Positions 19,524-20,400 of a DNA stretch of 47,047 nt are shown piece after piece; positions within the stretch are counted from its first letter, which is position 1, and each line of letters begins with the position of its first letter. A program made the translations under genes and the position numbers. The notes under the pieces were generated by a model that was not told where the DNA came from, did not search any database, and saw nothing but the letters and a program-made list of their open reading frames with translations. The DNA comes from a phage, in the sequence record OZ335955.1; one strand, written 5' to 3'.

Positions 19524-19643
19524 ATGGGTTCAACAAACGGTCCGTCTCGTTCACGCGCTACTGGCAATACCAAAACTGGCGGCAAAACTGGTGCAGTGAA
19601 GCCAAACGGTTCTACCCGCTCACCATCGCGCGGTAAAAAATAA
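19524..19643 (+). CDS. small basic Gly/Ser/Thr-rich protein (39 aa)
   Basis: GGGGA RBS; product MGSTNGPSRSRATGNTKTGGKTGAVKPNGSTRSPSRGKK; stop overlaps next ATG. Confidence 0.3.
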   Translation: MGSTNGPSRSRATGNTKTGGKTGAVKPNGSTRSPSRGKK

Positions 19644-20119
19644 TGTTCGGCGCAGACATTGCCATCATGATCATGTATGTGCTGGGATTCGCCTGCACTG
19701 GCATGATCGCGTTTCTGGTGTTCATTCCAGCAATGGTGATGTCTGTGTATCTTGTATGGGTGCTTGTTGATTCATTTCCCGCCGAATATCTGTATTACCT
19801 TGCGCAGTCTATGGTCTGGTTGTTTCCGGCTATTGCGCTGCGCAAAAGTACAAAGATGGCGCTCTGCGTGCTGACGATGAGCCTTTACGAATGGCTGGTT
19901 GCGATAGAGTCATTCGTATGGGAATTTATCACGCCTGTAGAAACGCCGCTTCATGCGCAGTACGCATTTATTATTATCGGCATCCATCTGCTCATCCTTT
20001 CCATCACTTTTAAATGGGGCGGCGAAATTGGACATTATTCTTGGCGTGGTCGCCATCGTTTTTTCGCTGATTCAAATCTATCAGTGCTGGGAACATATCA
20101 TCAGCGAGACACGCAATGA
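19643..20119 (+). CDS. multi-pass membrane protein
   Basis: about four hydrophobic helices; C-terminal 30 codons overlap other reading frames, so the true stop is uncertain. Confidence 0.45.
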   Translation: MFGADIAIMIMYVLGFACTGMIAFLVFIPAMVMSVYLVWVLVDSFPAEYLYYLAQSMVWLFPAIALRKSTKMALCVLTMSLYEWLVAIESFVWEFITPVETPLHAQYAFIIIGIHLLILSITFKWGGEIGHYSWRGRHRFFADSNLSVLGTYHQRDTQ

Positions 20120-20400
20120 ACGGGACACTAAGGCAAGTCGCAGAGCAGATTATAAGCGGAACGACAGGGCAGGTGATTGACAAGGCCGGATACGCTTCTA
20201 TTGGCACTGGTATCGGCCTGAAAGTCGCAGAGCAAACACCTGTCACGCAATCTTATTTTGAGGCTATGATTCCACACAGCCTGACAGAGTGGGCGGCAGT
20301 GGCGTCAATCCTCGGCGCTCTGTCTCTGGTAATAAAGAATCTGTTTGAAATGTGGTGGAAAGTTCGGGAGTCGAAGAAAAATGACAGCACTAACACCTGA
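20116..20400 (+). CDS. membrane-anchored protein (C-terminal TM helix)
   Basis: Gly-rich N-terminal region, WAAVASILGALSLVIKNLF helix and basic tail. Confidence 0.4.
   Translation: MNGTLRQVAEQIISGTTGQVIDKAGYASIGTGIGLKVAEQTPVTQSYFEAMIPHSLTEWAAVASILGALSLVIKNLFEMWWKVRESKKNDSTNT

Follow-up and report, generated by a model that had tools for sequence, protein, structure and literature searches.

How many genes are read from a short stretch of phage DNA in which all three forward frames stand open at once, and what might their products do together? The question is raised by a locus (positions 19524-20400) in sequence record OZ335955.1, a stretch of 47,047 nucleotides (nt) that was analysed as a whole and is referred to here as the window. 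The window, at ~47 kb, represents a Skatevirus-like siphophage, and approximately 190 phage records match the region at 80-95% nucleotide identity; these include Skatevirus and Caminolopintovirus phages, the BASEL phages Bas77-81 and the Salmonella phages Skate, VSt472, STGO-35-1 and seszw. Comparison with these and with far more distant phages suggests that a micro-gene lies across the junction of two membrane-protein genes, and that it probably forms, together with the second of them, a conserved pair around which a larger membrane-protein module is built.

Reading rightward from a divergent intergenic region, the annotations of the relatives list a hypothetical protein of 39 amino acids (aa), a ‘lipoprotein’ of 146 aa, a ‘membrane protein’ of 94 aa and a head-tail adaptor (DUF7370), beyond which lie other connector genes, the tail terminator and the major tail protein. 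None of the related genome annotations that we examined records a gene in the third frame. On the plus strand of the window, the corresponding open reading frames (ORFs) are a basic-peptide gene of 39 aa (19524-19643), a polytopic membrane protein gene encoding 158 aa here (19643-20119), with four to five hydrophobic helices by hydropathy and AlphaFold2 (AF2) prediction, and the gene for the 94-aa membrane protein (20116-20400). The unannotated micro-ORF of 50 codons, opening with TTG, occupies 20028-20180. The frames used are 2, 0 and 1, and at the ATGA junction (20116-20119) every one of them is open. The initial annotation, made from the window alone, had proposed these four ORFs and described a basic 39-aa peptide, a polytopic membrane protein, a third frame and a protein with a C-terminal transmembrane (TM) helix; each ORF is present where it was placed, and the anatomy had been read correctly.

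The third frame is open from 19941 to 20180 and contains three candidate starts, ATG 19953, TTG 20028 and GTG 20046. Neither the ATG nor the GTG is conserved in the relatives, whereas the TTG is; of the two starts entertained in the initial annotation, TTG or GTG, only the former has thus held. In the sequence GGCGGCGAAATTGGA (20018-20032), a Shine-Dalgarno (SD)-like GGCGG is separated by 5 nt from the TTG, after which comes the second codon of the micro-ORF. The pattern GGCGGnGAAATTGGA, with GGCGGnGAAA ahead of the TTG, occurs once, and at the same place, in all 48 of the sequences compared (the window and 47 loci, 38 distinct), including lineages of approximately 70% nucleotide identity that lack the upstream genes. 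The micro-ORF is intact in 38/38 distinct close relatives and in the loci numbered L042-L047. It overlaps the polytopic gene by 92 nt, a region that encodes the last ~17-30 polytopic residues, and the 94-aa gene by 65 nt. In the encoded micro-protein, an N-terminal TM helix spans approximately residues 3-21, the motif Y(K/Q/R)CW(K/E)xII comes next, and the tail is charged.

In the Klebsiella (Roufvirus-like) phages VLCpiS13b and ZCKp20p (~70% identity) the 39-aa and polytopic genes are absent and the TTG ORF and its motif are kept. The metagenomic lineages L042-44, also without both upstream genes, retain them as well (e.g. MDIAIGVIVMALSLVQVYRCWKFIIRRIINER...). Thus, the conservation of this frame is not a mere shadow of the polytopic gene. 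The distance from the TTG to the ATG of the 94-aa gene is 88 nt in every lineage, with zero indels although identity falls to 60-70%. Across seven clade representatives, the Nei-Gojobori ratio of nonsynonymous to synonymous differences per site (pN/pS) was 0.39 in the micro-ORF frame (pS 0.63), as against 1.31 and 1.15 in the other two frames, and the minimum number of changes by codon position within the micro-ORF was 25/20/45 (chi-square 11.7, p ~0.003). Once the ATG of the 94-aa gene is passed, the wobble changes fall in the frame of that gene (33/12/11), which indicates that the charged tail of the micro-protein is largely a passenger. The part under selection would accordingly be the TM helix and the Y(K/R/Q)CW(K/E)xII segment.

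An ORF in an alternative frame is not by itself unusual. Within the window, an ORF that is 36 or more codons long and stands in the same relative frame spans 19 of 54 long-ORF starts, a count that falls to 2 of 54 when a TM-grade hydrophobic stretch is demanded as well. It is conservation that carries the micro-ORF beyond chance, and this conservation runs deep. The 94-aa family includes 72 close clusters, and profile searches gave 28 representative clusters reaching down to ~20% identity, for a subset of which genomic context was obtained; the distant loci with context are L055, L056, L057/58, L059, L060, L061, L062/63, L064 (phage JLT2), L065 and L066. An ORF in the same frame crosses the start of the 94-aa gene in 15 of the 15 lineages examined, in which identity of the 94-aa protein goes down to 20-41%. 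These distant ORFs overlap the 94-aa start by 17-74 nt, with the 94-aa gene always in the micro-ORF frame + 1, and each combines a start codon with about 20 hydrophobic residues (KD15 at least 2.07 in the 13 scored) and ends in a charged tail. The micro-protein of the window has no PHROG or curated Pfam family, one sub-threshold match to DUF1003 (E 0.16), and matches to one cluster only among 5.8 billion predicted proteins. Taken together, these comparisons make it very probable that the micro-ORF is a real gene starting at TTG 20028, and we infer that it is translated. The initial annotation had held that the translated frames could not be decided from sequence. That was too pessimistic, as comparison places the third frame under purifying selection, with a conserved start and recurrence of the frame in distant lineages.

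It could instead be argued that the third frame is untranslated and owes its conservation to the overlapping genes, to a regulatory RNA or to a ribosome-loading site for the 94-aa gene. The passenger-like evolution of the C-terminal 21 codons would fit such a view, the invariant GGCGGnGAAATTGGA could serve as a translation-standby site, gene callers almost never predict the micro-ORF, and, as described below, it is dispensable. Our literature search found no ribosome-profiling or proteome data for these phages. Nevertheless, we regard an untranslated frame as quite improbable. Where the polytopic gene is absent the first 88 nt are free of overlap, yet the ORF, its hydrophobicity and a pN/pS well below 1 persist; the indel-free spacing is maintained across diverged lineages; a single-TM ORF is retained in that relative frame by distant lineages that start it with ATG and whose nucleotide sequence is unrelated; and no Rfam family matches at the locus. 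Very improbable, in our estimation, is a programmed +1 frameshift by which ribosomes translating the polytopic gene would carry on in the frame of the micro-ORF and lengthen the protein at its C-terminus by a further TM helix; the third frame would then be an extension rather than a gene in its own right. The micro-ORF does always lie at +1 relative to the polytopic gene, whose zero-frame tail is poorly constrained and whose stop has moved in the window. Against this, the micro-ORF has its own start codon and SD-like site, occurs in at least six lineages without an upstream polytopic gene, and is accompanied by no conserved slippery or shift-prone site in the alignment.

Two other readings of the micro-ORF were rejected. 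The terminator-like hairpin that it contains at 20042-20055 on the plus strand (TGGCG...CGCCA then TCGTTTTTTC) is within chance expectation, and both its stem and its T-run are unconserved in the VSt472-like and Klebsiella relatives. A spanin role of the Rz/Rz1 kind is contradicted by the absence of a signal peptide or lipobox, by the charged tail and by the presence of a genuine Rz and Rz1 elsewhere in the genome.

The genes around the micro-ORF follow a recurrent plan. Approximately 120-130 phage genomes in the searched collection carry the 94-aa gene, among them Bas77-81 and phages proposed for Salmonella biocontrol, and in every such locus examined the micro-gene lies ahead of it. A polytopic gene of 146-165 aa precedes the micro-ORF in the window, L059, L060, L062, L064, L065 and L066. 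Wherever such a gene is present the order is the same, with the polytopic gene in frame f, the micro-ORF in f+1 and the 94-aa gene in f+2, and the end of the polytopic gene usually forms an ATGA stop/start overlap with the 94-aa gene. A short K/R-rich peptide gene devoid of hydrophobic residues precedes the polytopic gene in L059, L060, L064 and L066. The candidate for this upstream peptide in L062 is glycine-rich and weakly basic, and the 58-aa ORF upstream in L065 has only the ending ...SPSRGR in common with the peptide of the window. Wherever the polytopic gene is missing, the 39-aa gene is missing too. In this distribution, the 94-aa gene is the core, always-present component of the module, the micro-ORF and the 94-aa gene form an ancient and always-linked core pair, and the 39-aa and polytopic genes are an add-on, found together or missing together. 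A tblastn search with protein P0089 against cultured phages gave no match.

Some relatives have other genes at this site. In phages without the rightward polytopic gene, a leftward gene for a 130-aa protein with four TM helices adjoins the micro-ORF/94-aa pair (L042:1875-2267, minus strand); no relationship was found between this protein and the polytopic protein of the window, and a precomputed Pfam label ‘LysA (weak)’ attached to it was not reproduced by our Pfam scan. In Klebsiella phage ZCKp20p, a gene for a TnpB-family RNA-guided endonuclease is inserted just 3' of the head-tail connector genes (L039:3188-3373).

The 39-aa peptide that opens the module in the window contains nine K+R and no D+E residues (net +9), consists to 67% of G/S/T/P/N, has no hydrophobic core and is presumably disordered. 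The stop codon TAA of its gene has one base in common with the next ATG. The peptide matches phrog_34767 (E 1e-25), a family of unknown function, and it is identical in VSt472 although the DNA there is ~81% identical. In the window and its relatives (L012, L018, L040) it occurs in lengths of 35, 39, 41 and 44 aa, all in-frame; these differences correspond to gain or loss of (G)NTKT-type repeat units in a protein that is otherwise almost invariant. Disruptins, of the type of phage phiKT gp28, are cationic amphipathic lysis peptides that can insert in the outer membrane. Such a role was considered for the 39-aa peptide and rejected: with only one I/L/V/F/W/Y/C residue and its high content of G/S/T/P/N, an amphipathic helix is impossible.

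The polytopic gene is longer in the window than in its relatives. There, it stops at a TAA equivalent to 20081-20083, giving 146 aa, and the same triplet is TCA in the window alone and TAA in all 37 other distinct relatives. The change adds 12 codons, so that the stop, which lies 33 nt earlier in the close relatives, now forms an ATGA overlap with the 94-aa gene. An ATGA junction is also the type found in the distant lineages L059, L062 and JLT2, and the same base change gives K19Q in the micro-protein. We found 47 clusters of polytopic homologues at 58% identity or above, nearly all of 146 aa. The protein matches phrog_14688 ‘lipoprotein’ over residues 1-146 (E 4e-95), with no Pfam, NCBIfam or PADLOC match. 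The AF2 model has five helices, a mean predicted local distance difference test score (pLDDT) of 64.2 and a tail below 50, and a Foldseek search of this model against BFVD returned only the protein’s own family.

In its N-terminal part the 94-aa protein bears a conserved Gly-rich motif (GQVIDKAGYASIGTGIGLK); a variable loop leads from there to the C-terminal TM helix, and the tail (KVRESKKNDSTNT) is basic. Its one strong hydrophobic segment spans residues 58-79, and the Gly-rich stretch at residues 24-38 provides ~12-15 residues between lysines. At its 3' end, the gene runs into that of the head-tail adaptor, which starts at ATG 20381. Among PHROG families, the protein falls in phrog_13738 ‘membrane protein, moron’ (E 1e-60). 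Several features are consistent with a holin-like protein: it is small, has at least one TM domain and ends in a basic C-terminus, as holins do, and PF04971, the phage 21 holin family, is the commonest sub-threshold Pfam match of the close family, with weak matches in 14 of 46 members (best E 0.016). Distant members match PF04971 at 18-19.5 bits (E ~1e-3) over nearly the whole model, and single distant members match PF16080 and PF10746. The function-annotated secondary PHROG matches of the family are all to holins, namely phrog_20 (1.4e-6, P0080), 4237, 1350 and 920. An architecture of the S21 type, with a first TM helix resembling a signal-anchor-release (SAR) domain, was nevertheless rejected for the 94-aa protein, which has no convincing helix of that kind, a single N-terminal Met and no SAR endolysin as a partner. 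The endolysin encoded at 8271-8735, 11 kb from the 94-aa gene, lacks a hydrophobic segment at its N-terminus.

That endolysin belongs to a complete endolysin/holin/Rz/Rz1 cassette at 8003-9449 of the window, which rules out the module as the primary holin. The cassette contains an endolysin-annotated ORF of 92 aa (8003-8281, phrog_10457), the second endolysin-annotated ORF (8271-8735, phrog_90), a 79-aa holin candidate with two TM helices (8732-8971), Rz (8952-9449) and, in the +1 frame inside Rz, the Rz1-like outer-membrane lipoprotein (9187-9396, MTLSMLLLSLAGC...). The two endolysin ORFs overlap by 11 nt and may represent a split or two-component endolysin, and Rz/Rz1 is a second pair of overlapping genes in the same genome.

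In four independent distant lineages, the module has peptidoglycan-hydrolase or holin genes as neighbours. It adjoins Peptidase_M15_4 and GTA_holin_3TM genes in L059, an Amidase_2 gene in L062/63 and a Phage_lysozyme gene in L066, and in Paraglaciecola phage JLT2 (L064) it lies immediately 5' of a DUF5675 ‘transpeptidase’. In these lysis-adjacent loci (L059, L062, L064, L066) the module is always found beside a multi-TM protein of 126-163 aa, which is PF11351 GTA_holin_3TM in L059 and phrog_9646, of unknown function, in L062 and JLT2. The L066 neighbour has a glycine-rich N-terminus that recalls, by eye only, the L059 and JLT2 proteins. Pairwise BLASTP found the L059 neighbour not similar to those of the other lineages, and neither Pfam nor BLASTP supports the neighbours in L062 and JLT2 as GTA_holin_3TM holins. 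The multi-TM protein and the module may form a recurring partnership.

The module also seems to bring its own promoter. A TGnTAnnnT element stands 5' of it at the equivalent place in the window, L041, L038, L045, L042 and L066; in the window this putative extended -10 element is TGCTAAAAT (19485-19493, plus strand). A generic sigma-70 scan did not call TGCTAAAAT and called only a leftward promoter at 19476-19448. The region 19448-19493 is thus arranged as a divergent promoter region, with the leftward TTGACG-17-TATAGT back to back with TGCTAAAAT. With a promoter-like element of its own, the module behaves, as far as its sequence suggests, as an autonomous unit.

Evidence of a different kind comes from genome-reduced phages. 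Yuan et al. (Nucleic Acids Res 2022, PMC9825161) trimmed the genome of phage seszw, which is ~94% identical to the window over this locus, and obtained viable mutants. The deposited genome of mutant seszw_80L has a deletion equivalent to 19643-20075, which removes the whole polytopic gene together with the start and TM helix of the micro-ORF; that of seszw_250S has a deletion equivalent to 19626-20104. In the latter (L049 ~1600-1640), the truncated 39-aa ORF has been joined to a new stop, which forms an ATGA overlap with the start of the 94-aa gene, and the viable mutant has thus recreated a stop/start coupling to the 94-aa gene. Since the deletion mutants are viable, neither the polytopic protein nor the micro-protein is required for plaque growth under laboratory conditions. 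Among 70 matching records that carry no host field, largely seszw wild-type and mutant genomes, the polytopic region is still matched in only 18. None of the 70 has lost the 94-aa gene, the adaptor gene or the cassette holin, and since both the cassette holin and the 94-aa gene are retained throughout, the mutants do not tell which is the real holin. The initial annotation would have given up its reading had only one frame been translated and no membrane phenotype found; the tolerated loss of both the polytopic gene and the micro-ORF addresses this in part.

What, then, might the module do? The explanation that we prefer as a whole is that four genuine genes in three frames form a compact, autonomously promoted module that is accessory to lysis, and we give it an even chance of being correct. 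Under this proposal, the tight overlaps would couple translation, giving joint synthesis of the proteins and joint action in the cytoplasmic membrane. The micro-protein would be started at TTG 20028 from its own SD-like site, by a gene bridging the junction of its two neighbours, and would be oriented N-out and C-in according to the positive-inside rule. In the least certain step, the module would act late at the inner membrane, with a holin-like 94-aa core whose small membrane partners tune the timing or execution of membrane permeabilization, and with the primary holin supplied separately by the cassette at 8003-9449. The role would be accessory rather than primary because a full lysis cassette is present elsewhere and because the seszw deletions are viable. 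Taken separately, the lysis-accessory function is tentative and, in our view, possible rather than probable. The initial annotation had suggested functions that were holin/antiholin-like or in exclusion; this is still the right short list, minus a primary holin.

Several points weigh against a holin-like core and a role in lysis. PF04971 scores the 94-aa protein of the window at only E 0.052 and 14 bits, below the cut-off of 26, no holin family reaches its curated threshold for the 94-aa family, and unrelated Pfam families appear at similar sub-threshold E-values. An hhalign comparison of the 34-sequence family alignment with six S21-family sequences returned a probability of 24% (E 8e-4); the 37 aligned columns take in nothing beyond the second TM helix and the C-terminal tail, and the match is possibly driven by composition. 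The 94-aa protein has only one convincing TM segment, and its AF2 model (pLDDT 59.8) is confident for the TM helix only. On this sequence evidence, the 94-aa protein is at most a putative member of a holin family. Between the polytopic protein of the window and those of L059, L060, L062 and L064 no homology was found (hhalign probability 1%); the L065 protein is clearly homologous, and with the other distant polytopic proteins the parallel is one of architecture. As to position, in the window lineage, the Klebsiella relatives, L042-47, L055 and L057/58 the pair lies ahead of the DUF7370 adaptor and not with lysis genes, and in L060 and L061 it stands isolated among oppositely oriented genes. 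The site 3' of lysis cassettes is, moreover, a classic one for unrelated ‘moron’ genes such as lambda bor, and adjacency is therefore weak evidence. A promoter-like element of its own is likewise what morons have, and retention of the 94-aa gene in all of the seszw mutants may reflect only which genes were targeted.

The main rival is superinfection exclusion or a host-takeover ‘moron’, in which the membrane proteins would sit in the inner membrane of the infected cell and block DNA entry of related phages that arrive later, or alter the envelope, without any role in lysis. The promoter-like element is found in most lineages, and the module moves as a unit, being found ahead of the adaptor, after lysis cassettes and in isolation. 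In PHROGs, the 94-aa family is assigned to the category ‘moron, auxiliary metabolic gene and host takeover’, and dispensability of the polytopic gene and micro-ORF in single-phage laboratory passage is what would be expected of exclusion genes. Small polytopic inner-membrane proteins are, indeed, typical of exclusion systems such as P22 SieA and T4 Imm. We consider this explanation unlikely all the same, as neither PADLOC, PHROG nor Pfam gave a match to an exclusion or defence family, and PADLOC-DB gave none at E <=0.1 for the four window proteins and four distant homologues; NCBIfam searches had no relevant match either. Unlike fast-turnover morons, the core pair is deeply conserved and fixed beside the adaptor gene in several lineages, the 94-aa gene is present in every sequenced genome-reduced seszw mutant, and the relatives annotate a different ‘superinfection immunity protein’ elsewhere. 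Alternatively, the 94-aa protein and the micro-protein could help morphogenesis, either by anchoring or organising, at the inner membrane, the completion of heads or their joining to tails, or as minor virion components; their location in the structural operon would then be accounted for. The pair lies just 5' of the DUF7370 adaptor, with overlapping stop and start, in the adaptor-linked lineages listed above, and the 94-aa gene is never lost in the seszw mutants. This we deem improbable: no structural gene stands beside the pair in L059, L060, L061, L062/63, L064 or L066, no structural-protein family is matched, and the micro-ORF is dispensable.

Returning to a module accessory to lysis, it is tempting to speculate further that the four products are the subunits of a phage inner-membrane complex that is widespread but has gone unrecognised, with a stoichiometry set by three-frame translational coupling, and that this complex is a new lysis-timing or superinfection-sensing device distinct from holin/antiholin sets, spanins and Imm/Sie proteins, found in Skatevirus-like phages of enterobacteria as well as in marine ones such as Paraglaciecola JLT2. 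We regard this extension as somewhat unlikely. Overlapping phage genes and holin/antiholin sets are known kinds; conversely, we found no prior description of the three-frame bridging micro-gene, of its very deep conservation or of the four-gene module. A three-frame overlap can evidently stay stable over deep distances (20-40% protein identity) and is not the quirk of one genome, and the locus defines a portable membrane-protein module in culturable phages. Should the module truly control lysis timing or exclusion, it would affect burst size and phage-phage competition in phages that are under development for applications.

Comparison with known systems helps to place these proteins. The polytopic protein and the 94-aa protein are full-length members of PHROG 14688 and PHROG 13738, respectively. 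Neither label, ‘lipoprotein’ or ‘membrane protein’, carries a tested function, neither family records the overlapping micro-ORF, and the N-terminal ...VLGFAC... segment of the ‘lipoprotein’ is, on our reading, off the usual lipobox consensus in a protein that looks polytopic by hydropathy and AF2. With the phage 21 S21 pinholin/antiholin (PF04971), the 94-aa protein has in common its small size and membrane location, a WAA-x-GxLGxL-type TM helix and a K-I/V-R-E basic tail; unlike S21, it has no dual-start motif and no convincing first TM/SAR helix, and its gene lies outside the lysis cassette here. T4 Imm/Sp, P22 SieA and HK97 gp15 are small, poorly conserved inner-membrane exclusion proteins, often with their own promoters and variable in position. 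The module differs in having no family match to them and in its deeply conserved, tightly overlapped core pair, which is atypical of such single-gene systems. P2 LysA-type polytopic proteins and the antiholins with genes of their own, P1 LydB and T4 RI, are non-essential membrane proteins, small or with several TM helices, that are encoded beside a holin-like gene and modulate lysis timing. The polytopic gene and the micro-ORF are similarly dispensable here; no sequence relationship was detected, however, and the module lies 11 kb from the lysis cassette in the window. A parallel in gene arrangement is offered by the embedded genes of the lambda Rz/Rz1 type. There too, the gene of one membrane protein carries in its +1 frame the coding sequence of another, which is small and membrane-targeted, the embedded member is routinely missed by annotation pipelines, and the two products are functionally paired. 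The micro-ORF differs in that it encodes no lipoprotein signal and in that, rather than being nested within a single gene, it bridges two adjacent genes, so that all three frames are engaged.

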